Assembly: GCA_021650915.1 (NCBI GenBank)
Contig: CP091279.1
Coordinates: forward strand, 1,950,001 to 1,982,000
Origin: Candidatus Brocadia sp.
GTDB taxonomy: Bacteria > Planctomycetota > Brocadiia > Brocadiales > Brocadiaceae
Direction of reading: 5' to 3'
Length of the DNA stretch: 32,000 nt
Part shown: positions 19,218-32,000 of the stretch, piece after piece
Position numbering within the stretch: position 1 is the first letter of the stretch
Layout: every line of letters starts with the position of its first letter
Position numbers and translations under genes: made by a program
Notes under the pieces: model-generated
Databases searched by the model: none
What the model was told of the DNA's origin: nothing
The model's input: the letters and a program-made list of their open reading frames with translations, nothing else

Positions 19218-21539
19218 ATGAATGATACCTTACTAAGACACCTGGGTTTAGACATTGAAAAAATTGCCGAAGAGATGCAGTTGCTTTCCGCTGATATTGA
19301 AGGAAACAAAGAGGCTTTGGTTAAGACGCTTGTCAGATATGACGAGGCAAAAAGGATCGCCAAAAATGCCGCGCTCTGGCAGTTTGGTTTGAGGCCGAAC
19401 CAAATACTATTCAGTGTGATAGACCAAACACGTCAGAATCAAACCATGAAAGAGCAGGCGGTGCGGGCGGTCGCGACACAGTATCTCGAGACATTTAAAC
19501 AGTCAAGAGAAGACGGCAGGGATAAATGCCTTACCCACAATGACCAGAGAGAACTCCTGGAATCAGCGCTGAAGATTCTCGTTAACTTTGAGAAAGAGAT
19601 GGACGGGAAAATTGAACCAGCAACATGCGCGCTCATTGCGAGAACATATCTGCTCAGAAGCGCTATTATGCTGCCTAAAGGTTTTACGGTGCCGGAAAAG
19701 AAAAAGGAGGCATTGCGAAAGGGTAGCGAATATATACGCACGATTGACGATTTAACGGAAGAAGCATTGCGCGTTCGCGGCAGTCTTCTTCTGGAACAGA
19801 GGCATATTGATATTCTGGAAAAAAATCGTGAATCCAACGGCGATAATCAAACTCTTATAAAAGAGCTGCGCGAAGCCCTTGAAAACGGCTGCGACAAATT
19901 TAATAACACAATTGAAGACGTGAGGATTGCCCTCTGTTACATCGAATTAACGGATGACAAGACAGATCTCTTGCAAAAGATAATAGACTCTCAACTCGAT
20001 TTCCCGGGGATCGAACTCTACCGGCTCAAGGCCTACTTTTTGAAAGGTGATTATGCCGCTATCAGTGATGAGGCTTTAAAAGAAGAGCTTAGCGGTATCC
20101 GTTTTAACCATCCGGTCTGGAATGAGGCAATGATCTTTATAAAACAGCTTAAGGATGCACAGGCAGATTGCTGGAGAAAATTAGCGTTAGCTGCTTATCA
20201 GGTATGCAGAACGCGAGAAAGTGAGACGTCCTCACTTCACCTTCGCTGGTACTGGTCTGGATACCGGCTGCTGTATGATCTTGCTTTTATTGCAGAAGAC
20301 GACCTCCACAGAAAGGCGGAAATTGCCGATTCGCTAAAAAGCCGGGTTTCCCTTCATGCAAAGGCGCTGGATGAAATTATTAAAAACGACAAGGAGAGAG
20401 AAGAATACTATAATGCCCATGCAGTTGCTTATGCTGGTGGGTACGTGAAAGGGGCGGGAAGAATTCATACGGGAAGGAAAGAAAAGGACTGCGACACAAA
20501 CAATGTCTTCAAAGCACTTCCAAAGGATGTTGCAATTGTTGCCTTTTATCTGAATTACTGTGAAAAGAACAAGGACTCACGGGGAAGGGGCTACGCCCTG
20601 ATTGCGGAAAACGGCACATGGAATATAAAGGAATTTCCCTTTGACAGCCTTTACAAGGCATATTTGACGTGGCAGACAAATTATGCACGGCACAAGGAGT
20701 CTGCGTCACCGTCTCTGGTCGAATTGTGTGAAGAGATAGGCAGGGCAATGCCCTTTCTTTTTGAAATAACGAAGAAAAGAATTGTCTTTGTGCCACATGA
20801 TTTTTTGCATCGATTGCCGCTGCATGGGGCAATAAAAAGAGAATGGCCGAAAGTCTTATTGGAGGAATACTCTTGCTTGTACTTGCCGGCCTGGTCATTG
20901 TTACACGCCGATACAACAAAATCCTCACAGACGGCCAGGAAAAGGATGCTCATAGAATGTTTTCATGAATATGATTATCATGAATTACAGACAAAGATAA
21001 ATGCACAGATAAAAGAGAGTAAGGGTGTTGTATGGGAAAAGCGAGAGAAGGCAAAGCCAAAAGACCTTTTGCAGATTCCTGAAGCGCCTGAAATCCTCAT
21101 GATATTATCGCATGGAAGGGCCGATATGACAAACCCCTATTATGCAAGGCTTAAGCTGGAAGGTGGAGATGTATCTGCTTTGGAAATCATGAAAGCCAAA
21201 ACCGGAACCATGAGTATCAAGGGCAGCAACGTAATCATGGGTTGCTGTGAAACTGATCTGTTGCCAGTATTATCAACACCCATTGATGAACATGTGTCGC
21301 CAGCGACAGCATTATACACCAGGGGGGCAAATTTTGTAGTTGGAACCATGTGGGAAATAAACCCCATAGATATAGAAAGGCATTTCATTGAACTATTAAC
21401 GAAAAATGATAATAGTATGTTGGAAGGTGTTGGAAATTGGCAAAGAGAAGGGTTGTCAGATGATAAATGGAAGAAGCACAAAGAATCGAGATTTTTCTAT
21501 GCTATTATTGGATTCAGAGTATTAGGTATCTTTACATGA
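19218..21539 (+). CDS. csx29: TPR-CHAT caspase-like protease (Csx29-like, type III-E accessory)
   Basis: 773 aa with a helical TPR-like N-terminal ~520 aa. The C-terminal CHAT domain has the motifs VFVPHDFLHRLPLHGA, LYLPAWSLL, ILMILSHGRAD (His codon 21111-21113) and NVIMGCCETD (Cys codons 21243-21248). It sits next to a Cas7-11-like gene. Confidence 0.85.
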   Translation: MNDTLLRHLGLDIEKIAEEMQLLSADIEGNKEALVKTLVRYDEAKRIAKNAALWQFGLRPNQILFSVIDQTRQNQTMKEQAVRAVATQYLETFKQSREDGRDKCLTHNDQRELLESALKILVNFEKEMDGKIEPATCALIARTYLLRSAIMLPKGFTVPEKKKEALRKGSEYIRTIDDLTEEALRVRGSLLLEQRHIDILEKNRESNGDNQTLIKELREALENGCDKFNNTIEDVRIALCYIELTDDKTDLLQKIIDSQLDFPGIELYRLKAYFLKGDYAAISDEALKEELSGIRFNHPVWNEAMIFIKQLKDAQADCWRKLALAAYQVCRTRESETSSLHLRWYWSGYRLLYDLAFIAEDDLHRKAEIADSLKSRVSLHAKALDEIIKNDKEREEYYNAHAVAYAGGYVKGAGRIHTGRKEKDCDTNNVFKALPKDVAIVAFYLNYCEKNKDSRGRGYALIAENGTWNIKEFPFDSLYKAYLTWQTNYARHKESASPSLVELCEEIGRAMPFLFEITKKRIVFVPHDFLHRLPLHGAIKREWPKVLLEEYSCLYLPAWSLLHADTTKSSQTARKRMLIECFHEYDYHELQTKINAQIKESKGVVWEKREKAKPKDLLQIPEAPEILMILSHGRADMTNPYYARLKLEGGDVSALEIMKAKTGTMSIKGSNVIMGCCETDLLPVLSTPIDEHVSPATALYTRGANFVVGTMWEINPIDIERHFIELLTKNDNSMLEGVGNWQREGLSDDKWKKHKESRFFYAIIGFRVLGIFT

Positions 21540-21619
21540 TTGCATGACTATAGCAGGGTCTAATAGTTATTATTGAATTAGGCCTTCGGCGGCTTTATAA
21601 GGTTAAACCCACCTCTGAA

Positions 21620-21650
21620 TCCCCTCCCAGGAGGGGACTTCTTTCGTCCC
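21620..21650 (+). terminator. GC-rich hairpin downstream of csx29 (possible terminator or REP-like element)
   Basis: TCCCCTCC (21620-21627) pairs with GGAGGGGA (21630-21637) and is followed by the pyrimidine-rich CTTCTTTCGTCCCTTCTT. The loop is very short and the U-tract imperfect. Confidence 0.3.
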
Positions 21651-21786
21651 TTCTTGAGAGGGGGTTGGGGGTGTGTAAGGCAGGAGCAGAAAGATTGAAA
21701 TTCCTTAATCATGAATTAATCAGTACCATTTGATTTCTGGCAAAAGAAACTATTGATACCGTTGATTGATGTCAAAAGGAAGATGA

Positions 21787-22362
21787 ATGGACACAAACTA
21801 TTTTGATATGGTGGGACGCATTTATTCTGAAAATCATGAAAAGCTTATTAACTATGCACGCAAACATTATCCAATATTGAAACAAGAAGAAATAGAAGAC
21901 GTTGTCCACGATGTCTCTATCGAGATAATAAAAATGATACAGGCGTTATCTAAAACGGGAAATAGTATTGATAAAAAACTCGTCATAGGTTCTTTTTATA
22001 AACGGGTAAGATGCAGGTGTATCGATAGAGGTAGAAAAAAACAGGAAGAGTCAAAAGAAGAAGGTGTGCTTGATAATAAAATGTTTAAAAAGACTAACTC
22101 AGGGATTCCTTCGGAGCAGAAATGGTTCCATCCGGAAGATGCGCCAGATAATATCAATAAAGAAAAGTTAAATATAGCAATGAGTAAAATGGAGCAAGAG
22201 TGCTTAAAAACAATAAAATTATTTTATCTGAGCGAAGCTTCTTTATCTCATCGGGAAATAGCGAATGAATTACAAATTTCGGAAGAAAACTCAAGGAAGA
22301 GGTTGTCACGATGTATGAAGACGCTTAAGAAGTATTTTGATAAAGAAATAAATAAAATTTAA
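21787..22362 (+). CDS. rpoE: ECF/RpoE-like sigma-70 family factor (type III-E associated)
   Basis: 191 aa. It has a region-2-like segment (EEIEDVVHDVSIEIIKM) and a region-4 HTH (LSHREIANELQISEENSRKRLSRCMKTLKKYF), joined by an unusually long charged linker. Confidence 0.75.
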   Translation: MDTNYFDMVGRIYSENHEKLINYARKHYPILKQEEIEDVVHDVSIEIIKMIQALSKTGNSIDKKLVIGSFYKRVRCRCIDRGRKKQEESKEEGVLDNKMFKKTNSGIPSEQKWFHPEDAPDNINKEKLNIAMSKMEQECLKTIKLFYLSEASLSHREIANELQISEENSRKRLSRCMKTLKKYFDKEINKI

Positions 22363-22374
22363 AGAAGATATCAT

Positions 22375-23244
22375 ATGTGTGAAAGATCGGAACAGTATCA
22401 GGAGATGATGTTTGCATATATCGAAGGCATGCTGGAACCAGAAGAGAAGAAAATCTTTGAGCTTCATTTACAAGGTTGCAACAGTTGCAGGGAAGAACTT
22501 CAAAAGACTAAAAAACTAGTTGACATGCTTAAGGAAATACGTTTTAGACCCAATATGGTAACGGAAGATTGCAAAAATTATGACGTCGTGGGATACGCTT
22601 TTGACGAGCTGACACCAGAGGAAAGAGAAACCACCGCAATGCACATCGCAAAATGTGATCATTGTCTATTTGAGGTAATCGATCTGAAAGCCATAAAGAA
22701 AAATGATGTCGATGTTGATAATTCACAGGCGCAAACACCTGATGCGATAAAAGCAAATCTGTATGGCAATTGGATTAACCATAATATTATTGAATTCATA
22801 AGCGACAGCGTAGACTTGAAATTACCTCTTGCGGCAGGGCCTGCCGGGTTCAAAAAAACCCGGAAGGTTGGCAACAGATACATGATCAGCATTTCTCCAA
22901 AGAATGGAGAGATATCCTTGATGAAAGAAGATGCCTGTCATAGCGTCTTAAAACCAGTAAGAGACATCATTAATGGCCACTATTTTTATTATAAAATTTT
23001 TGGATTAGTAAAAGATTTAAAACAATGTGAATTGCTTTCGGGCAAAGAAAGATTCTTGCCAATTACAATAAAATTACCAACAAGAGACCTTTCTGCTTTG
23101 TACATATTTATTTCACAAAGAGAGGATGTTATACAACAAATTACCTTAGATTGGATGCTAAACGTCGCAAAAGGTACCCTTCAGCAACCGATAAATGAAG
23201 TTATTTATATCTATGCAAAAATTTGTTGGGAAGTGATGAAATAA
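22375..23244 (+). CDS. soluble anti-sigma-like protein with two tandem zf-HC2 (H-x3-C-x2-C) motifs, in the Csx30 position
   Basis: 289 aa. Motif 1 is AYIEGMLEPEEKKIFELHLQGCNSCREEL (H codon 22465, C 22477, C 22486). Motif 2 is FDELTPEERETTAMHIAKCDHCLFEV (H 22642, C 22654, C 22663). No TM segment is present. The start is 12 nt after the rpoE stop, and the stop is 2 nt before the cas7-11 ATG. Confidence 0.65.
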   Translation: MCERSEQYQEMMFAYIEGMLEPEEKKIFELHLQGCNSCREELQKTKKLVDMLKEIRFRPNMVTEDCKNYDVVGYAFDELTPEERETTAMHIAKCDHCLFEVIDLKAIKKNDVDVDNSQAQTPDAIKANLYGNWINHNIIEFISDSVDLKLPLAAGPAGFKKTRKVGNRYMISISPKNGEISLMKEDACHSVLKPVRDIINGHYFYYKIFGLVKDLKQCELLSGKERFLPITIKLPTRDLSALYIFISQREDVIQQITLDWMLNVAKGTLQQPINEVIYIYAKICWEVMK

Positions 23245-23246
23245 TA

Positions 23247-26200
23247 ATGTCTAAAACAGATGATAAAATAGATATCAAACTCACGTTTCTCGAACCATAC
23301 CGCATGGTAAATTGGTTAGAAAATGGTTTGAGAATGACCGATCCAAGATACCTGCGAGGTCTCTCTTTTGCCCGGTGGCATCGGAATAAAAATGGCAAGG
23401 CGGGAAGGCCGTATATTACGGGTACGCTTTTGCGGTCGGCAGTCATTCGGGCGGCTGAGGAGTTGTTGTCACTCAATTTGGGTAAGTGGGGTAAACAACT
23501 GTGTTGCCCGGGGCAGTTTGAAACAGAAAGGGAAATGAGGAAAAACAAGACTTTTCTCAGGCGAAGGCCCACCCCTGCCTGGTCTGCCGAAACAAAAAAA
23601 GAAATCTGCACTACCCATGGGAGCGCATGCGCATTCTGTCTCCTCCTGGGAAGAAGATTGCATGGAGGAAAAGAGGATGTCAATGAGGATGCCCCTGGAA
23701 GCTGTCGTAAACCCGTGGGTTTCGGCAATCTCAGCCTTCCATTTCAGCCCACAAAACGACAAATACAGGATGTCTGCAAAGAGCGCGTTTTAAACAGGGT
23801 TGACTTTCGTACCGGCAAAGCGCAGGACTATTTCAGGGTTTTTGAGATTGATCACGAAGATTGGGGTGTTTACACCGGCGAGATAACCATAACAGAGCCA
23901 CGCGTACAAGAGATGCTTGAAGCGTCTCTTAAATTTGTTGATACCTTATGTGGCGCCCTGTGCAGGATTGAGATTGTCGGGAGCGCCGATGAAACGAAAA
24001 GAACTACATCATCAAAAGAAGGGTGTCCTGCCTCCACTACCACCAGAGATTGCTCGTCTTCAGAAAACGATGATACCAGTCCGGAGGATCCTGTACGTGA
24101 GGATTTGAAAAAAATAGCTCATGTCATAGCGAATGCCTTTCAAAATAGCGGTAACAGGGAAAAGGTACACGCCCTTGCTGACGCAATAAGGGCCATGCGG
24201 TTAGAAGAGAGCTCTATTATCAATACCTTGCCTAAAGGGAAGTCAGAAAAAACAACAGAGCAGATTGAGGTAAATAAGCATTACTTGTGGGACGAAATAC
24301 CGGTTAATGACACGTCAGTAAGGCATATATTAATAGAACAATGGAGGCGGTGGCAGTCAAAGAAGGATGATCCCGAATGGTGGAAATTTTGTGATTTTTT
24401 GGGAGAGTGCCTTTACAAGGAATACAAGAAGTTAACGTCAGGCATTCAATCAAGGGCGCGGGTAATGGGTGAGACGGAATATTACGGCGCGCTGGGTATG
24501 CCCGACAAGGTAATCCCGCTTCTTAAAAGCGACAAAACGAAGGAATGGATTCTTGTCGGAAGCCTGAAGGCAGAGACCCCGTTCTTTTTTGGGTTAGAGA
24601 CGGAGCAAACAGAAGAGGTTGAACATACCAGCCTGCGGTTGGTAATGGACAAAAAGGGCCGGTTTCGCATTCCCCGCTCCGTTCTGAGAGGGGCATTGCG
24701 GCGTGATATGCGTATTGCATTTGACAGCGGTTGCGACGTCAAACTTGGCAGTCCTCTCCCCTGTGATTGTTCGGTGTGTCAGGTTATGAGAAGTATTACA
24801 ATAAAGGACTCCCGGAGCGAAGCGGGCAAGCTGCCCCAGATTCGGCACCGGATCAGGCTCAACCCCTTTAGCGGTACGGTTGATGAAGGAGCCCTCTTCG
24901 ATATTGAAGTAGCGCCTGAAGGAGTTATATTCCCCTTTGTGATGCGCTACCGGGGAGAGGAATTTCCGCCCGCTCTGTTGAGTGTTATCAGATACTGGCA
25001 GGATGGTAAGGCGTGGCTGGGGGGCGAAGGCGCTACCGGGAAGGGGCGTTTTGCCCTCGCCAAAGACCTCAAAATGTATGAGTGGAAGCTCGAAGATAAA
25101 TCTTTGCATGCATATATTGATACGTATGGCCACAGAGGAAATGAACATGCAATAGGAACCGGGCAGGGCATCGATGGTTTCCGGTCGGGTTCCCTGTCTG
25201 ATTTATTGTCTGACATATCAAAAGAAAGTTTCCGCGATCCCCTTGCATCTTACCACAACTATCTTGACAAGCGATGGATTAAGGTTGGTTATCAAATAAC
25301 CATAGGTGCGCCGTTGCTTTCTGCGGATCCCATCGGCGCCTTGCTTGACCCAAACAACGTGGACGCCATCGTATTTGAAAAGATGAAGCTGGATGGCGAT
25401 CAGGTGAAATATCTTCCGGCGATAAAGGGAGAAACGATTCGGGGTATTGTCAGGACTGCCCTGGGGAAAAGAAATAACCTTCTAGCGAAGAATGATCATG
25501 ATGACTGCACTTGCTCCCTGTGCGCCATCTTTGGAAATGAAAACGAAACAGGCAAAATCCGCTTTGAGGATCTGGAGGTATATGATAAAGACATTGCGAA
25601 AAAAATCGATCACGTCGCGATTGACCGGTTTACCGGCGGCGCAAGGGATCAGATGAAATTTGACACCCTGCCGCTTATCGGCAGCCCTGAACGTCCCCTC
25701 AGACTGAAAGGCCTCTTTTGGATGCGAAGGGATGTGTCGCCGGATGAGAAGGCCAGGATTTTGCTGGCATTTCTGGAAATTCGGGAAGGTCTCTATCCCA
25801 TTGGCGGAAAAACAGGGTCGGGGTATGGTTGGGTATCAGACCTGGAATTTGATGGCGATGCACCGGAAGCGTTCAAAGAGATGAACTCGAAAAGGGGCAA
25901 ACAAGCATCTTTCAAAGAAAAGATTTCCTTCCGGTATCCCTCCGGAGCGCCGAAGCATATCCAAAATCTCAAAGCGACGTCTTTCTATTATCCGCACTAC
26001 TTTCTTGAGCCAGGGAGCAAGGTGATAAGAGAACAAAAGATGATTGGGCATGAGCAGTATTATGAGTCGTATCCATCCGGCGCTTCTGGGGAAAAGCTTT
26101 TGTCTGGCAGGATAATCTGTAGCATGACCACCCATACCCCTCTTATTGTACCCGATACCGGAGTAATAAAAGATCCTGAAAATAAACACGCAACGTATGA

Positions 26201-28148
26201 TTTTTTTCAGATGAACAATGCGATAATGATCCCTGGTTCAGAGATACGCGGCATGATAAGCGCCGTGTATGAAGCAATGACAAATTCCTGTTTTCGCATC
26301 TTCCACGAGAAGCAATATCTGACGAGAAGAATCTCTCCCGAAGATAAAGAATTGAGAGAATTCATCCCGGGGATAGTCAGGATAATAAACGGAGACGTGT
26401 ATATTGAAAAGGCAGAAAGGGAGTACCGCCTGCCTCTCTATGATGATGTGCATATCATTACGAATTATGAAGAGCTGGAATATGAAAAATATATTAAGAA
26501 AAACCCTGGCCGGGAGCAAAAGATAAAGAATGCCCATCGCTTCAATAAAAACATAGCGCGTATTGCAGAATCCAACAGAAACTATTTATGCTCTCTGGAT
26601 CGCGCCGTTCGGCGTGAAATCTTATCGGGCAGGAAAAAAGTGAATTTCCGGTTGGTGAAGGTAAACGATAATAAAAATCCGGATAAAGAAGCTGTTGAGT
26701 TATGCAAGACCGGGCCATTAGAGGGCCTTGTGAAATTCAGCGGTTTGAACGCAGTAAACATATCAAACCTGCGTCCCGGAACAGCAGAGGAGGGATTTGA
26801 TGCCAAATGGGATATGTGGTCGTTAAATATTATTCTGAATCGTATGGATGTGCGAAACAGCCAAAAGAAGGAATATCCAAGGCCAGCGTTACATTTTAAT
26901 CACGATGGCAAGGAGTACACTATTCCTAAACGATGTGAAAGGGTCTTTGTGAGGGCAGAAGCAGGGAAAAGGGCTGAGACGGAGGGTTCTTATAAAGTGC
27001 CCCGTAAGGTGCAGGAACAGTACCAAAATATCCTGCGTGATTACGAGTCTAACATTGGCCATATCGATAATACGTTCAGAACGTTGATTGAAAACTGTGG
27101 CCTGAACAATGGGAGCCTGGTATATTTTAAACCTGATAACAGTCGTAAGGAAGTAGTGGCAATAACCCCGGTAAAAATATCCCGGAAAACCGACCGCCTG
27201 CCCCAGGGAGACAGATTTCCACACACCTCTTCAGACCTCCGGCCATGCGTAAGGGATTGCCTGGATACCGAGGGCGATATTCGCATGCTTGAGAATTCAC
27301 CTTTCAAAAGACTCTTCCATATACATCCCGAAGGTCTGTGTCCTGCATGTCAATTGTTTGGCACAACGAACTACCGGGGCAGGGTTCGCTTCGGTTTTGC
27401 CAGTTTGAGTGATGGCCCAAAATGGTTCAGGAAAGACGAGGGTAACGAAACGTGTCATATAACCCTGCCCTTGCTGGAAAGACCGCGACCCACCTGGTCA
27501 ATGCCGGATGATACCAGCACGATTCCGGGGAGAAAGTTTTATGTGCATCATATGGGCTATGAAACCGTGAAGAAAAATCAGCGGACTCTTGTAAAAACGG
27601 AGAATAACCGCACCGTAAAGGCATTAGACAAAGAGAATGAATTTACCTTTGAAGTTTTTTTCGAAAATCTGAGAGAGTGGGAATTGGGGCTTCTCTTACA
27701 TTGTCTGGAACTTGAACCGGAGATGGGACATAAGCTTGGTATGGGTAAACCGCTCGGATTTGGAAGTGTGAAGATACGGATAGACAAATTACAGAAGTGT
27801 GTCGTAAACGTAAAAGACGGTTGCGTTTTGTGGGAACCGGAAGAAGATAAGATTCAGCATTATATTGCCAAAGGCCTGGGAAAATTAACAACGTGGTTTG
27901 GGAAAGAGTGGGATCGTCTCGAACATATCCAGGGGCTGCGCTCACTGCAGAGACTTCTCCCCCTGAACGAAAATCTCACCGTAAAATATCCTGCTCTCAA
28001 TAACGAAAGCGATGGCGCTGAATCAGGCTACACCTATGAAGAACTTTCCAAAACAAGAGAATCAGAAGGGAAAGCGAAGAAAATTCAGGGGAGAATACGC
28101 GACCTCAAAACCCCCTGGAAAGAGATAGCTCAAAAGGTGAAGCATTGA
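23247..28148 (+). CDS. cas7-11: Cas7-11 / gRAMP-like single-protein type III-E effector (four fused Cas7/RAMP modules plus a Cas11-like region)
   Basis: 1633 aa from the ATG at 23247; the ORF is open from a TTG at 23223. There are four RAMP glycine/arginine motifs: ITGTLLRS (from nt 23415), RIPRSVLRG (24666), IKGETIRG (25422) and IPGSEIRG (26229). Each is paired with a Cys cluster: CC...C..C (23502-23637), C...CxC..C (24732-24777), CxC..C...FG (25506-) and C...C...C..CQLFG (-27348). A terminal G-rich loop GMGKPLGFGSVKI starts at nt 27738. The gene lies directly upstream of a CRISPR array whose repeat ends in the III-E-type ATGTCACGGTAC. Confidence 0.9.
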   Translation: MSKTDDKIDIKLTFLEPYRMVNWLENGLRMTDPRYLRGLSFARWHRNKNGKAGRPYITGTLLRSAVIRAAEELLSLNLGKWGKQLCCPGQFETEREMRKNKTFLRRRPTPAWSAETKKEICTTHGSACAFCLLLGRRLHGGKEDVNEDAPGSCRKPVGFGNLSLPFQPTKRQIQDVCKERVLNRVDFRTGKAQDYFRVFEIDHEDWGVYTGEITITEPRVQEMLEASLKFVDTLCGALCRIEIVGSADETKRTTSSKEGCPASTTTRDCSSSENDDTSPEDPVREDLKKIAHVIANAFQNSGNREKVHALADAIRAMRLEESSIINTLPKGKSEKTTEQIEVNKHYLWDEIPVNDTSVRHILIEQWRRWQSKKDDPEWWKFCDFLGECLYKEYKKLTSGIQSRARVMGETEYYGALGMPDKVIPLLKSDKTKEWILVGSLKAETPFFFGLETEQTEEVEHTSLRLVMDKKGRFRIPRSVLRGALRRDMRIAFDSGCDVKLGSPLPCDCSVCQVMRSITIKDSRSEAGKLPQIRHRIRLNPFSGTVDEGALFDIEVAPEGVIFPFVMRYRGEEFPPALLSVIRYWQDGKAWLGGEGATGKGRFALAKDLKMYEWKLEDKSLHAYIDTYGHRGNEHAIGTGQGIDGFRSGSLSDLLSDISKESFRDPLASYHNYLDKRWIKVGYQITIGAPLLSADPIGALLDPNNVDAIVFEKMKLDGDQVKYLPAIKGETIRGIVRTALGKRNNLLAKNDHDDCTCSLCAIFGNENETGKIRFEDLEVYDKDIAKKIDHVAIDRFTGGARDQMKFDTLPLIGSPERPLRLKGLFWMRRDVSPDEKARILLAFLEIREGLYPIGGKTGSGYGWVSDLEFDGDAPEAFKEMNSKRGKQASFKEKISFRYPSGAPKHIQNLKATSFYYPHYFLEPGSKVIREQKMIGHEQYYESYPSGASGEKLLSGRIICSMTTHTPLIVPDTGVIKDPENKHATYDFFQMNNAIMIPGSEIRGMISAVYEAMTNSCFRIFHEKQYLTRRISPEDKELREFIPGIVRIINGDVYIEKAEREYRLPLYDDVHIITNYEELEYEKYIKKNPGREQKIKNAHRFNKNIARIAESNRNYLCSLDRAVRREILSGRKKVNFRLVKVNDNKNPDKEAVELCKTGPLEGLVKFSGLNAVNISNLRPGTAEEGFDAKWDMWSLNIILNRMDVRNSQKKEYPRPALHFNHDGKEYTIPKRCERVFVRAEAGKRAETEGSYKVPRKVQEQYQNILRDYESNIGHIDNTFRTLIENCGLNNGSLVYFKPDNSRKEVVAITPVKISRKTDRLPQGDRFPHTSSDLRPCVRDCLDTEGDIRMLENSPFKRLFHIHPEGLCPACQLFGTTNYRGRVRFGFASLSDGPKWFRKDEGNETCHITLPLLERPRPTWSMPDDTSTIPGRKFYVHHMGYETVKKNQRTLVKTENNRTVKALDKENEFTFEVFFENLREWELGLLLHCLELEPEMGHKLGMGKPLGFGSVKIRIDKLQKCVVNVKDGCVLWEPEEDKIQHYIAKGLGKLTTWFGKEWDRLEHIQGLRSLQRLLPLNENLTVKYPALNNESDGAESGYTYEELSKTRESEGKAKKIQGRIRDLKTPWKEIAQKVKH

Positions 28149-28405
28149 TAGATGATGGCTTTTACAGGGCAGGGAAGATCCCATGAGGGTATTTTCAAAA
28201 GGGAAAAGAAACGACAAAATTATCTGTAACCAGGTATTGGCAAAGTGGTTATCTATAATTTCGTCAAAAACCATCGTTTTCCCCTTTGGTATCAATAACT
28301 TACATCGGTTTTTCCGATTTCAGACCATGAATCGCCTATGGGAAATGAAGGGTGTATGGAAATGCACATTTAACTCATTTGATTCAGATAGGTTATACGG
28401 GAGCG
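28149..28405 (+). promoter_or_regulatory. CRISPR leader
   Basis: A 257-bp AT-rich non-coding stretch between the cas7-11 stop and the first repeat. It contains a perfect TATAAT at 28254-28259 with only a weak -35. Degenerate repeats lie at the opposite end of the array, which supports leader polarity. Confidence 0.5.
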
Positions 28406-29701
28406 GTTGGCAAGGACGTCCTACCTTTATATGTCACGGTACTTTTTTATTAGACTAGCTGATAGATACCTGTTCGGATGTTGGCAAGGACGTCCTACCT
28501 TTATATGTCACGGTACCCATATTCTCTCGGCCGTGTCGTAGCCTACGACAAAGGTTGGCAAGGACGTCCTACCTTTATATGTCACGGTACCTTACTTGTG
28601 CCCTCTTCCTTCAACAACTCATCAGCCAGTTGGCAAGGACGTCCTACCTTTATATGTCACGGTACCTATTATTAAACTAGGCGCGTGGAGCCCGCTAATC
28701 GTTGGCAAGGACGTCCTACCTTTATATGTCACGGTACATTTTACGTCGATCCACGGCACATTGTCGTCCACTGTTGGCAAGGACGTCCTACCTTTATATG
28801 TCACGGTACGAATACAACTACCATCGGTCGGACTCCGACCTTTCGTTGGCAAGGACGTCCTACCTTTATATGTCACGGTACATCTGCTATCCTAATTGCT
28901 AAAAGGATCGGGCAATCCCCGGGTTGGCAAGGACGTCCTACCTTTATATGTCACGGTACTTTTTCCCTTCCAATTCATCTTTCCTCCTCCTCCCCGCGTT
29001 GGCAAGGACGTCCTACCTTTATATGTCACGGTACATCCAAATGATGTTCCATGTTCCACCTCCCCACAGACAGTTGGCAAGGACGTCCTACCTTTATATG
29101 TCACGGTACACACAGACCGCCTACAACGTGTCCGGCGATCTTTGTGGTTGGCAAGGACGTCCTACCTTTATATGTCACGGTACAGATCCCTCCGCCTCTT
29201 TTCACACAGACCGCCTACAGTTGGCAAGGACGTCCTACCTTTATATGTCACGGTACGCTACCACAACGCGCCCTTCGCTTATAGGTTTTTTGGTTGGCAA
29301 GGACGTCCTACCTTTATATGTCACGGTACCCATCCTCTCTGGCAGCGTCCGATAACCCCACCATATGTTGGCAAGGACGTCCTACCTTTATATGTCACGG
29401 TACAGCGCATCCCTCAAGTTGCCATCCCTGTCCCACATCTGTTGGCAAGGACGTCCTACCTTTATATGTCACGGTACTTGATGCCCGATGCCACAATGGC
29501 GTGGGCTCCGGCATCTGTTGGCAAGGACGTCCTACCTTTATATGTCACGGTACTCGCCCTTTCGCAGTACTGAAAATTGATTCCGTCAAAAGTTGGCAAG
29601 GACGTCCTACCTTTATATGTCACGGTACTTAAGGTGAAGCATTCTCCTTTCTCTCTAACTCTTCAATGGTTGGCAAGGACGTCCTACCTTTATATGTCAC
29701 G
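28406..29701 (+). CRISPR. CRISPR array, main part: 17 intact 37-bp repeats plus the first 33 nt of repeat 18
   Basis: The repeat is GTTGGCAAGGACGTCCTACCTTTATATGTCACGGTAC. Copies start at 28406, 28480, 28554, 28629, 28701, 28773, 28845, 28923, 28998, 29073, 29147, 29220, 29293, 29367, 29441, 29517, 29592 and 29669. There are 17 unique spacers of 35-41 bp. Confidence 0.97.
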
Positions 29702-31742
29702 CAGGGTAACGTCAAAGTCATGCTAGGCAAAAAAGGGGGAGTGTCAGGGCAAGGGAAAGAAGGGGTTTGAAGAGGGAAAAACGAGCAAAGACACGAAAAG
29801 ATGACAAAAAAAGGCATAAAAGACAAGGGAATCCCCATGTGCCTCGAAGGGCATGGGAAATAAGGGGGGAAGGGGAAGAAAGAGACGTTATAAGCGAAGG
29901 AGTTTCAGGGCAAGGTGAGGTTGGTAGGTTAAATTTCTAAGAGTTTGTGCGATAGCGGTTCTTCCCAGTGAGCGAAAGATGCTGATGATGCAATTTTTGA
30001 GGGAGGCCATAACCCTGGGTGCATGGTTTGTTCGAATCGGGGAGCGGTCTTCATCAAAGGTGACATCACGAACGTAATGGAGGCTGTTTTCAATACTCCA
30101 ATGTCCCCGGTTCAAGCGGAGTATGCGGGCAGGGTCTGCCTTTTGTTGCGTAAGGCTGGTAATGCCATAGACCGTTTCTTCGGTTGTTTTTTGGGATTTG
30201 AGGTAGGTAAATTTTCTGTGGATACAAAAGACCTGTCCAACCAAGGGGAATGCAAGGTAATGGTTTAAATCGGCGCTGGTCCAGACCTGGCGGATTTCAA
30301 TGCGTCCGTGATGTTTGTCGATGGTTTTGTGCTGAGGGGGGAAAAGAGACCAGGCGGAGGTCTTCGATATGTTGTCTGAGAGTGGGTTGGTTGTCTTTTA
30401 CGGTAAAGAGGTAATCGGCTTTCTTGTCTTCAACGAGATACCGCGCCGTCTCTTTTTGGGTATGCAGGGCATCGAGAGTGACCACCTTGTCCTTGATGTC
30501 TAAGGGGTCAAGGAGGGTTTTCAGCGTTGGGATTTCGTTGGTTTTCTGGTCAACGGGACATTGGGCGATAACGACGCCTTTTTGCTGGAGAAAGGCAGAG
30601 AGGAGATGGATTTTCTGCCCGTTTTCCTGGTATGCGCCCTTGAGGGTCTTCCCGTCAATGGCAATGGCGGTATCTTCTCCGGCAAGGGACTGAAGCCAGC
30701 CGTAGAGGGCCGTATCTACCGCTTCGGCATCAACGTCTTGCAGGAACCTGCGGATGGTAGGTTCGCTGGGAGGTTCATAGATGCCGGTCTTTGGGTTCAG
30801 ACGACAGCCGAGACGTTTGAGCATATTTTGACTGCATGATTTTGCCCACTCAGCGATAGCGGCAAAGCTTGTGGCAGAACACAGCAGGGCGCAAAGAGAA
30901 AGGGTCATGACGGAGAGCTTTCTGTGTCGTTTGCCGCGTGATAGACGGGGATCAGGAATCTGGGATAATCGTTCTTTCAGTGATTCAGCATCTTTCAGAG
31001 AAAGGCGCATCGGTTTTACCTCCTTTGGGGTGTTTCGGGTTTCGAGATACGGTTCAGAGAGTTTTCTTTTCCCATCGGGAAGAACAGGACGAACAAAGAC
31101 CATCTTGGGTTGGTTGTGGGAATAATACCGGTGAGCGCATTTTGCAAACCCGCGGGTATATCCCAGAAACTCCCAGCCCTGGGCCTTGTAACAGGTGCCC
31201 TTGAAAGAGCGCGGATCGACAAAGGTCTCTGCAAGATAGATCGGATGGTTATAGATGGTTTGCCAGTCCCGGGATAATCGTTTGAGATTCCGGGCGAGGA
31301 CATAAGAGGCAAGGTTGGGTATACGGACATGAGGGAAGATCAGGAAACGACTGTTATTGGCAACAAAAGACAACCGCCGGTACTGAAGAAAGCAAGGCCA
31401 TCCTATCCAGCGGTCTCGTACCTTGCATTTGAGCGCCGCTGCTGACCATCCGATCAAGGCAAGCCATTGTCCCTGGTGTATCGCCAGATACCGGATGCTT
31501 TCCCCGATCAGAGAGTGAAGCCCAGGATAATGGTATTGGCGCATGAGTTCGTCCCATCGGGTTCGTTCTTCCCGACGGATGGGTCTTACTTCAATGCCGT
31601 GAAGACCGCCCGATGGTACTACGCTTTTTCGTGTCTCTTCATGGTTCATGAATCTATTATACAAGAACCATTTTGAAAAAGTCAGTTTATTCCTTTTCTT
31701 TTTTACGTGTCAGTACTTGCGCTTATACTTGACGTAGCCCTG
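29702..31742 (-). mobile_element. ISAs1-family-like insertion sequence inserted in CRISPR repeat 18
   Basis: 2041 bp. The imperfect terminal inverted repeats CAGGGTAACGTCAA (29702-29715) and TTGACGTAGCCCTG (31729-31742) match at 12 of 14 positions. A 10-bp direct duplication ATATGTCACG lies at 29692-29701 and 31743-31752. Removing the IS and one duplication copy restores an intact 37-bp repeat. Confidence 0.85.
29888..31664 (-). pseudogene. ISAs1-type DDE transposase with an N-terminal DUF4338-like domain, frameshifted
   Basis: The 455-aa ORF (31664-30297) carries the ISAs1 hallmark LSQIPDPRLSRGKRHRKLSVMTLSLCALLCSATSFAAIAEW. The second frame (open from ~30350, ending at 29888) continues with HKTIDKHHGRIEIR...GHWSIENSLHYVRDVTFDEDRS. 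The frames switch near the G6/A4 homopolymers at 30336-30345. Confidence 0.8.
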
Positions 31743-31832
31743 ATATGTCACGGTACTAATCGTTTTCGTTTGCGATTACATTTTTGCCACTTTTTGTTGA
31801 TAAGGATGTCCTGCCTTTCTTGCATTCCCCGT
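31743..31832 (+). CRISPR. distal end of the same CRISPR array: 3' part of repeat 18, spacer 18, degenerate terminal repeat
   Basis: ATATGTCACGGTAC (31743-31756) is followed by a 39-bp spacer (31757-31795). The diverged repeat GTTGATAAGGATGTCCTGCCTTTCTTGCATTCCCCGT (31796-31832) matches 19 of the first 23 positions, and its 3' third is degenerate. Confidence 0.8.
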
Positions 31833-32000
31833 TTACCTCCAGTATTGTTGAAAGCCTGCCTGAGTGCAATTCTGACTCGAAGTAAGGGTTTTTATTAATT
31901 GTCAGAAACTCACCCACCTTTTTTACAAAGAGAACCCCGTCTTTTTCCAATCGTTACCGTTCATTCCATAAACAGATTTCCACATCTTCTTTTCGTCGAT

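Follow-up and report, generated by a model that had tools for sequence, protein, structure and literature searches.

The CRISPR locus described here lies at positions 19,218 to 31,832 of a 32,000-nucleotide stretch of Candidatus Brocadia sp. DNA (GenBank contig CP091279.1, forward-strand positions 1,950,001 to 1,982,000), hereafter referred to as the window, and it is almost certainly a type III-E (Craspase) system. Encoded within it, between the gene for an extracytoplasmic function (ECF)-type sigma factor and that for the single-polypeptide effector gRAMP/Cas7-11, is a 289-amino-acid (aa) protein best described as a relative of Csx30, the substrate of the Craspase protease, in which a tandem zinc-binding anti-sigma (ZAS) module takes the place of the helical N-terminal domain (NTD), the part to which the sigma factor and Csx31 bind. 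The reading favored here, to which we assign a probability of roughly 0.7, is that this protein functions as an anti-sigma factor cleaved by the caspase-like protease Csx29 upon recognition of foreign RNA by the effector.

Type III-E Craspase is a well-studied system as well as a biotechnology tool. The system type encoded in the window is already known, having been characterized since 2021-22, and the occurrence of a type III-E locus in an anammox genome is not in itself surprising. A published list of 20 type III-E loci (Strecker et al., 2022, Table S7) includes 'Candidatus Brocadia sp. isolate AM9, CP091279.1' as well as the Kuenenia contig designated L001 below, and 19 of those 20 loci were reported to carry two or more of csx30, csx31, and the sigma factor gene (Strecker et al., 2022). 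Within the literature that could be searched, the exchange of the Csx30 NTD for ZAS modules, together with the accompanying loss of Csx31, appears to be undescribed: full-text searches, whose scope excluded subscription-only papers and figure images, returned no link between Csx29 and zf-HC2 and none between Craspase, gRAMP or Cas7-11 and Brocadia, and the papers found to mention type III-E, Csx30 and anti-sigma factors together invoke the last of these purely by way of analogy for Csx30.

The 289-aa protein and its homology to Csx30

The features of the 289-aa protein are given below in window coordinates, a slash marking a position of cleavage and CTD denoting the C-terminal domain.

22375..23244, plus strand: gene for the ZAS-Csx30CTD protein, 289 aa; 12 nt separate its start from the sigma factor stop codon, and 2 nt its end from the gRAMP ATG
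22390..22704, plus strand: tandem ZAS modules (ZAS1, residues 6-54; ZAS2, residues 64-110)
22807..23223, plus strand: beta-rich CTD, residues 145-283; remote homolog of the Csx30 CTD of the Desulfonema ishimotonii type
22822..22854, plus strand: predicted scissile loop, residues 150-160, LPLAA/GPAGFK, at the tip of a beta-hairpin (strands 145-149 and 162-166)

The protein scores 52.8 bits against zf-HC2 (PF13490, cut-off 22.2), the match falling in two stretches. ZAS1 carries the motif H31-x3-C35-x2-C38 and ZAS2 the motif C66...H90-x3-C94-x2-C97, and the four residues of the latter (C-x23-H-x3-C-x2-C) are invariant in a 13-sequence alignment of the family (alignment A2), as are F204 and Y206 of the CTD. 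The closest solved sequence matches of the ZAS part, both of them weak, are the anti-sigma factors RsiW and RslA. In an AlphaFold2 model of the whole protein (pLDDT 80.6), the ZAS units (residues 6-54 and 64-110), each made up of three helices, are followed by a disordered linker (112-121), a helix (123-139) and a beta-rich domain (145-283). Given the behavior of the ZAS family, the adjacency of the sigma factor gene and the conserved synteny, the two modules are predicted to bind zinc and to sequester the sigma factor.

Homology between the beta-rich domain and the CTD of Csx30 is revealed by comparison of both profiles and folds. Using hhalign, a profile of the family CTD matched that of Csx30 CTD group B, composed of four canonical proteins of the D. 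ishimotonii (Di) type, at 95.7% probability (E 9.6e-9, 139 columns); a profile lacking the window sequence gave 95.9%, and a reversed-sequence control gave E 0.34. Two other Csx30 CTD groups gave no match (E 0.1 for group A alone, E 0.79 for group C), and the claim of homology is therefore limited to the Di-type group. A match to one CTD type and not to two others fits the published division of Csx30 CTDs into seven divergent groups and the high conservation of the Csx30 NTD (Kato et al.). Similarly, when the full model was compared with 350,542 PDB chains using Foldseek, the sole hit at E<=1e-3 was 8eey_E (E 2.6e-4, probability 1.00), the Csx30 fragment bound in the D. ishimotonii Cas7-11-Csx29-Csx30 complex, and the same chain was again the sole hit at this threshold for a model of residues 120-289 (pLDDT 91.3, pTM 0.88; E 1.1e-4, target-normalized TM-score 0.59). 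When the PDB is searched by sequence or profile, neither the ZAS protein nor its family profile leads to Csx30, which is reached only by comparing folds or profile with profile.

The link between ZAS modules and Csx30 CTDs is clinched by a natural intermediate found at another Brocadiaceae locus, L006. There, a 324-aa protein encoded between the sigma factor gene and gRAMP joins a tandem ZAS N-terminus, 33% identical to residues 9-149 of the window protein, to a C-terminus that matches positions 376-559 of the NCBIfam Csx30 model with 96.7 bits. The CTD type of L006 and of a further locus, L007 (YWGG...NYKxxIIGI), differs from that of the window protein. With respect to the canonical partners, tblastn detects no Csx30 helical NTD in the window, the N-terminus of the 289-aa protein consisting of the two zf-HC2 modules, and the curated Csx31 model gives no hit for this protein. 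The initial annotation had noted a ZAS-type protein in the place usually taken by Csx30 and Csx31; the family models and the negative tblastn bear this out, but because it retains a Csx30-type CTD, the protein is still related to the Csx30 family.

Relatives of the 289-aa protein recur in the same genomic setting. A word-indexed homology search returned only the protein itself, in an identical copy from Ca. Brocadia sp., and a full HMMER scan of 1.84 billion representatives returned 12 family clusters at E<1e-10. Full-length relatives measure 276-299 aa, 'long' forms of 440-550 aa possess an extra N-terminal helical region of ~210 residues, and no stretch of 7-10 residues is conserved across the family. 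A family member was found in a type III-E context at 11 other loci (L001, L006, L007, L077, L079, L081, L083 and L088-L091). Short forms occur in the order csx29 - sigma - ZAS - gRAMP (L077, L079/L080, L081/L082, L088 and L006), and long forms in the order csx29 - sigma-like - ~250-aa gene - long ZAS - gRAMP (L001, from Ca. Kuenenia, as well as L007, L083, L089, L090 and L091). Where the contig reaches, csx29 lies upstream and gRAMP downstream of the ZAS gene, which usually also neighbors a sigma or sigma-like gene. Pfam, or tblastn using the proteins of the window as queries, confirmed what these flanking genes are; one further contig was too short to judge. Among family members with recovered genomic context, none lies outside the csx29/gRAMP setting. 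The compact gene order thus recurs in divergent loci whose proteins share 30-47% identity, and in a neighbor-joining tree of gRAMP the ZAS-type loci fall together with one canonical locus nested among them. Additionally, a hidden Markov model of Csx31 built from seven loci gave no match in any of the eight ZAS-type loci to which it was applied, the window being one of them, and its positive controls (L012 and L014) scored 494-565 bits.

Effector, protease, sigma factor and array

The remaining features of the locus are as follows.

19218..21539, plus strand: csx29, 773 aa, TPR-CHAT caspase-like protease
21540..21786, plus strand: gap between csx29 and the sigma factor gene, 247 bp, with a terminator-like hairpin at 21620-21637 (consensus scan only)
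21787..22362, plus strand: ECF-type sigma factor gene, 191 aa
23247..28148, plus strand: gRAMP/Cas7-11 gene, 1633 aa if translated from the ATG and 1641 aa if translated from an upstream TTG
28149..28405, plus strand: stretch from gRAMP to the first repeat, taken to be the leader because of its position, with the degenerate repeat at the opposite end of the array
28406..29701, plus strand: first part of the array, with 17 intact repeats (37 nt each), 17 spacers (35-41 nt) and the opening 33 nt of repeat 18
29702..31742, minus strand: insertion sequence (IS) in repeat 18, with a 10-bp target duplication ATATGTCACG, read directly from the sequence
31743..31832, plus strand: last part of the array, with the remainder of repeat 18, a 39-nt spacer (31757-31795) and a degenerate terminal repeat (31796-31832)

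A reading-frame check confirmed four consecutive, co-oriented open reading frames (ORFs) on the plus strand at 19218-28148, followed by the CRISPR array. The last three genes are tightly packed, with gaps of 12 nt (sigma/ZAS) and 2 nt (ZAS/gRAMP), and 247 nt separate csx29 from the sigma factor gene. This longer gap may perhaps house a promoter for the sigma-ZAS-gRAMP unit; the number of promoter and terminator consensus sites found in it does not exceed shuffled expectation, and for that reason no regulatory claim is built on these scans. Genes for Cas10, Cas6, separate Cas5 or Cas7 proteins and a small subunit are absent from the ORFs of the window, the rest of which are housekeeping or IS genes (among the former AdoMet synthetase, Usp, GH57, TyrRS, radical SAM, PurE, MtnA and a VWA protein). 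Similarly, tblastn with Csx30, Csx31, CASP-sigma and RT-Cas1 of other loci found no match in the window, and no RT-Cas1 or other adaptation gene lies within it, a result that holds for the window only, given that all contigs bearing the exact window gRAMP break at the array.

The effector matches the curated gRAMP model NF041225 with 2214 bits (cut-off 700) and the PADLOC gRAMP model with 2297 bits over residues 15-1633, which is to say from end to end. All solved Cas7-11/gRAMP structures are matched as well, among them those of Candidatus Scalindua brodae (Sb) gRAMP (1170 bits, E=0) and Di Cas7-11 (992 bits, E 5e-297). D552 (LFDIEV) and D706 (NVDAIV) align with D547 and D698 of the Sb protein, the catalytic aspartates of the two Cas7 domains with RNase activity (PMC9729208). 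Identity amounts to 44-45% with the Scalindua (Sb-type) homologs found, 37% with D. ishimotonii and 100% with a partial Ca. Brocadia fulgida protein. Judged by this full-length match to the family model, the protein is a single-polypeptide effector of fused Cas7 domains and a Cas11 domain, and it is predicted to bind and process CRISPR RNA (crRNA) and to cleave complementary RNA. For Csx29, the curated model NF041237 gives 729 bits (cut-off 300) and Pfam CHAT 29.2 bits; the solved TPR-CHAT protein of S. brodae (PDB 7x8a_D) is matched at E 6e-110 (372 bits) and the solved D. ishimotonii Csx29 chain at E 1e-91. The catalytic dyad is conserved, H632 and C677 aligning with H585 and C627 of Sb TPR-CHAT (PMC9729208).

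The 191-aa sigma factor passes the sigma70-ECF model TIGR02937 (59 bits, cut-off 42.9) and is sub-threshold with Pfam Sigma70_r2 and Sigma70_r4. In BLAST comparisons with the sigma factor genes of other type III-E loci, it shows no similarity beyond region 4, and its identification as a CASP-sigma ortholog was rejected given this restricted similarity and the failure of the curated cut-off discussed below. Sigma factor genes beside ZAS family members are, in general, extremely divergent both from one another and from canonical CASP-sigma.

The 37-nt repeat, GTTGGCAAGGACGTCCTACCTTTATATGTCACGGTAC, occurs in 17 identical copies at 28406-29629, with 0 expected in shuffles. An IS of 2,041 bp with imperfect inverted ends (CAGGGTAACGTCAAAG and CAGGGCTACGTCAAG) divides repeat 18, whose first base is 29669, after ...ATATGTCACG. 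The DDE transposase of this element is divided over two frames (30297-31664 and 29888-30244), and in Pfam it consists of a DruA-like N-terminus ('Druantia DruA', 82.6 bits) followed by DDE_Tnp_1_assoc and DDE_Tnp_1. The 3' end of the repeat, ATGTCACGGTAC, is common to the gRAMP-adjacent arrays of L002, L005, L006, L008 and L014, and because it is always found on the gRAMP strand in these five unrelated loci, the direction of array transcription is fixed; its conservation fits a role as a crRNA 5' tag. Two neighboring spacers (29110-29146 and 29184-29219) have 17 nt in common (CACACAGACCGCCTACA), the 3' end of one being the 5' start of the other, and were therefore drawn from overlapping protospacers of the same target, which suggests repeated acquisition from one invader. 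No spacer matched any of 50,697 phage records.

These results confirm what the initial annotation observed and support its interpretation. It had described four co-oriented genes ahead of an array of 19 repeats, and the ORFs lie at the coordinates it gave; its labels (TPR-CHAT protease, ECF-like sigma factor, double zf-HC2 protein and RAMP polypeptide) are each backed by a profile search. The profile searches it had proposed were positive for gRAMP, CHAT and zf-HC2, and for the sigma factor Pfam Sigma70_r2/r4 remained sub-threshold and TIGR02937 was passed. The absence of Cas10, small-subunit, Cas6 and separate Cas7 or Cas5 genes was likewise borne out, the other ORFs of the window being of housekeeping or IS type. 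Its tally of 19 repeats holds, as do both end coordinates, 31832 included: 17 repeats are intact, one is split by the IS and one is a degenerate terminal copy; that ~2 kb of the array so delimited is an IS went unmentioned. Its assignment to type III-E (Cas7-11/gRAMP with Csx29) is secure, because curated family models, solved-structure homologs and conserved catalytic residues all agree.

The locus resembles the Craspases of Ca. Scalindua brodae, Desulfonema ishimotonii and Ca. Jettenia caeni in its single-polypeptide Cas7x4-Cas11 effector, its His/Cys TPR-CHAT protease, an array downstream of the effector whose repeats end in ATGTCACGGTAC, and the lack of Cas10. Unlike those systems, the window contains neither Csx31 nor a Csx30 NTD, and its sigma factor falls outside the curated CASP-sigma family.

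Proposed mechanism and alternative readings

Published work on the S. brodae, D. ishimotonii and J. caeni (Jc) systems has established that the gRAMP-crRNA complex binds Csx29 and that complementary RNA activates the protease. Csx29 cuts Csx30 at a loop or hairpin at which the CTD starts (L/D in S. brodae, M/K in D. ishimotonii, and A/S in J. caeni), and recognition of the site is structural and not motif-based; DiCsx30 is cut at M427/K428 on a beta hairpin of the CTD, and Jc-Csx30 at AIAA/SSEK. The NTD of Csx30 holds the sigma factor together with Csx31.

In the window, Csx29 would similarly form a complex with gRAMP and crRNA, and foreign RNA pairing with the crRNA would switch on its protease activity. 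The likely substrate is the 289-aa protein, a chimeric 'mini-Csx30', whose CTD would dock on Csx29 and offer its hairpin loop for cleavage, and whose tandem ZAS modules would hold the ECF sigma factor encoded just upstream. The cut, predicted near A154/G155, would part residues 1-154 (the ZAS modules and the helix, presumably sigma-bound) from most of the CTD; the exposed fragment would probably be degraded further, freeing the sigma factor and reprogramming transcription through its regulon. Further degradation after an initial cleavage is known for RseA, and the same has been proposed for Csx30. Placement of the putative cut at A154/G155, within LPLAA/GPAGFKK, follows from the hhalign alignment, in which the Met of the group-B YGTM/KK-type motif falls between A154 and G155. 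At residues 154-157, pLDDT drops below 50, the lowest in the domain, and the Jc site AIAA/SSEK is similar in character to LPLAA/GPAGFKK.

Regarding output, it had been anticipated in the initial annotation that this branch of the pathway may differ from that of known Craspases. Both Csx31 and the helical Csx30 NTD are absent, and that arm of the canonical response is therefore missing here; the logic by which a protease cuts an anti-sigma factor is probably the same, because the 289-aa protein keeps a Csx30-type CTD and only the sigma-binding N-terminal part is swapped. Tentatively, ZAS loci may represent a distinct, minimal III-E branch, its RNA-guided protease acting directly on a classical anti-sigma module of the zinc-binding kind and its output being purely transcriptional, free of the growth-arrest arm formed by the Csx30 NTD and Csx31, and could integrate invader RNA with oxidative or zinc stress. 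The C-x23-H-x3-C-x2-C motif is the one that renders RsrA-type anti-sigma factors thiol- and redox-sensitive, and because the invariant ZAS2 site is of this type, such a two-input switch is possible.

As in Csx30, a homologous C-terminal beta domain is encoded at the same locus position beside a sigma factor gene; unlike Csx30, which comprises about 560 aa with a helical NTD of two subdomains binding the sigma factor and Csx31, the window protein has 289 aa, devotes ~110 residues to tandem ZAS modules and lacks a Csx31 partner. With ZAS factors (RsrA-SigR, RsiW-SigW and ChrR-SigE) and with RseA/DegS it has in common the HxxxCxxC motif, a helical anti-sigma-like fold, an adjacent ECF gene and an expected logic of proteolytic release, but its ZAS module is duplicated, it lacks a transmembrane segment, it ends in a Csx30-type C-terminus, and the presumed protease is an RNA-guided CRISPR complex, as opposed to control by an envelope or redox sensor. 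A further parallel is the type III SAVED-Lon system CalpL-CalpT-CalpS, in which a CRISPR-triggered protease cuts an anti-sigma factor and frees an ECF-like sigma factor, as proposed here. CalpL is activated by cyclic oligoadenylate made by Cas10, whereas the window contains no Cas10 and activation would be direct, via target RNA bound to gRAMP.

Several observations weigh against a role for the 289-aa protein as a Csx29-cleaved anti-sigma factor. The CTD is a remote homolog of that of Csx30 (12-19% identity, TM-score 0.42-0.59, root-mean-square deviation about 6 Å), and the next-best fold matches, at E about 1e-3, are generic beta sandwiches. The curated Csx30 model NF041234 (cut-off 125 bits) gives no hit at E<=0.1 for the protein, scoring 308.7 bits with the Csx30 of L014 and, in the CTD only, 96.7 bits with the L006 chimera. 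The sigma factor likewise fails its curated model, NF041236 CAS_III-E_sigma, with 24.2 bits against a cut-off of 100. The predicted cleavage site is only positional, because the aligned P1 residue is Ala/Gly and not Met or Leu. Finally, what is shown comprises gene identities, conserved catalytic and zinc-site residues, domain homology and recurrent synteny; complex formation, cleavage and its site, sigma binding and the regulon are predictions, and activity in vivo is not assured, because the window holds no adaptation gene and the array carries an IS.

Alternatively, the sigma factor and the ZAS protein might form an ordinary stress or redox pair that does no more than control expression of the locus, in which case Csx29 would have a substrate encoded at another place in the genome or would modulate the gRAMP nuclease. 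The N-terminal half of the 289-aa protein is indeed textbook ZAS, its second unit bearing the full C-x23-H-x3-C-x2-C motif; the lack of a hit to the curated Csx30 model points the same way, and TPR-CHAT has been reported to regulate the nuclease activity of Cas7-11. Nevertheless, generic anti-sigma factors have no counterpart of the C-terminal 140 residues, which are homologous to the Csx30 CTD, the family is found only between csx29 and gRAMP, and in the L006 chimera a bona fide Csx30 CTD is carried on the same ZAS N-terminus, which together render this explanation unlikely. Another view accepts cleavage by Csx29 and holds that the released CTD is the effector, acting for example at the membrane, sigma factor release not being the output. 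It draws on published speculation that the Csx30 CTD, similar to ring proteins of secretion systems and pili, may act at the membrane, as well as on the division of Csx30 CTDs into seven divergent groups. The C-terminal fragment of Csx30 was, however, barely toxic in published E. coli assays, and the conserved pairing of ZAS modules with an adjacent sigma factor gene favors sigma control as the selected function; we regard an effector CTD as highly improbable.

Decay must be considered as well, the locus being conceivably a remnant that has lost the Csx30 NTD, Csx31 and its adaptation genes and, with them, immunity. RT-Cas1, Csx31 and a Csx30 NTD are not in the window, the IS splits repeat 18, the next gene past the array converges from the minus strand, and no spacer matches a known phage. 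Set against this are four full-length ORFs with intact catalytic residues, 17 identical repeats, and a gene order kept in independent loci at 30-47% protein identity, which indicates selection. Moreover, the IS sits at the old, leader-distal end of the array and leaves 17 spacer units transcribable, and the two neighboring spacers with overlapping protospacers suggest real acquisition. A decaying remnant therefore appears very unlikely, and cleavage of the 289-aa protein by Csx29 with consequent release of the sigma factor remains the preferred reading.

The domain swap amounts to a natural experiment in which the sigma-binding half was exchanged, the Csx29-docking half was kept and Csx31 disappeared with the old NTD. 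If this reading is correct, it would provide independent evolutionary support for the idea that the core job of Csx30 is that of a protease-gated anti-sigma factor. It would also indicate that Craspase output is modular, the ZAS N-terminus being joined to at least two CTD types and other type III-E loci having further accessory sets. Protease-substrate pairs from S. brodae and J. caeni have already been used for multiplexed RNA sensing. To these the window would add a small natural substrate, of 289 aa with a docking domain of about 140 aa, and an orthogonal protease-substrate pair for the same purpose.

Variation among other type III-E loci and neighboring features

Long members of the ZAS family are found, for example, at L001 (7879-9423), L083 (10001-11524) and L007 (1117-2601). 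Five of the contigs extend sufficiently upstream (L001, L083, L089, L090 and L091), and on these a sigma-like gene (270-410 aa) and a ~250-aa gene lie alongside; on the short contig of L007 the ~250-aa gene alone is seen. The possibility that the long forms are Csx30 proteins with an inserted ZAS module was rejected, the ~210-residue N-terminal domain showing no detectable similarity to the Csx30 NTD. Neither Csx30/Csx31 nor a ZAS-type protein is encoded ahead of csx29 in four other loci (L002 3664-7462, L003 50-3733, L013 3356-7628 and L017 3776-7453). Conserved genes of other kinds, belonging to clusters 12 and 14-16 and lacking a family assignment, are present there, as is, in L002, a gene for an ECF sigma factor. 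Tandem duplicate sigma-csx31-csx30 sets occur at L012 (63-5942 and 13535-14215) and L014 (305-7703), and L012 additionally has ZAS family fragments at both contig ends, so that a single locus may hold substrates of both the canonical and the ZAS type. Taken together, the type III-E accessory module seems more varied than the three canonical genes.

Variation extends to the effector. Some gRAMP/Cas7-11 homologs have extra domains (P0040, P0043, P0046 and many others), a cold-shock domain (PF00313) being present in many, and three homologs of 1900-1940 aa carry an ABC/SMC-type ATPase domain (PF13304, PF02463). The gRAMP of Ca. Kuenenia (L001 9986-15160) is split into two ORFs of 434 and 1274 aa, for which a frameshift or an assembly error is possible.

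Directly past the array, the plus strand of the window bears no adaptation gene, as compared with the RT-Cas1 that follows the array in L001 and L006, and the C-terminal end of a minus-strand ORF (...WKKTGFSL*, 31833-32000) converges on the array end. At the opposite end of the window, the minus strand of this bacterial genome encodes an archaeal-type S-adenosylmethionine synthetase (109-1290; PF01941, 503 bits) and a small NMD3-family-like protein (2188-2700).

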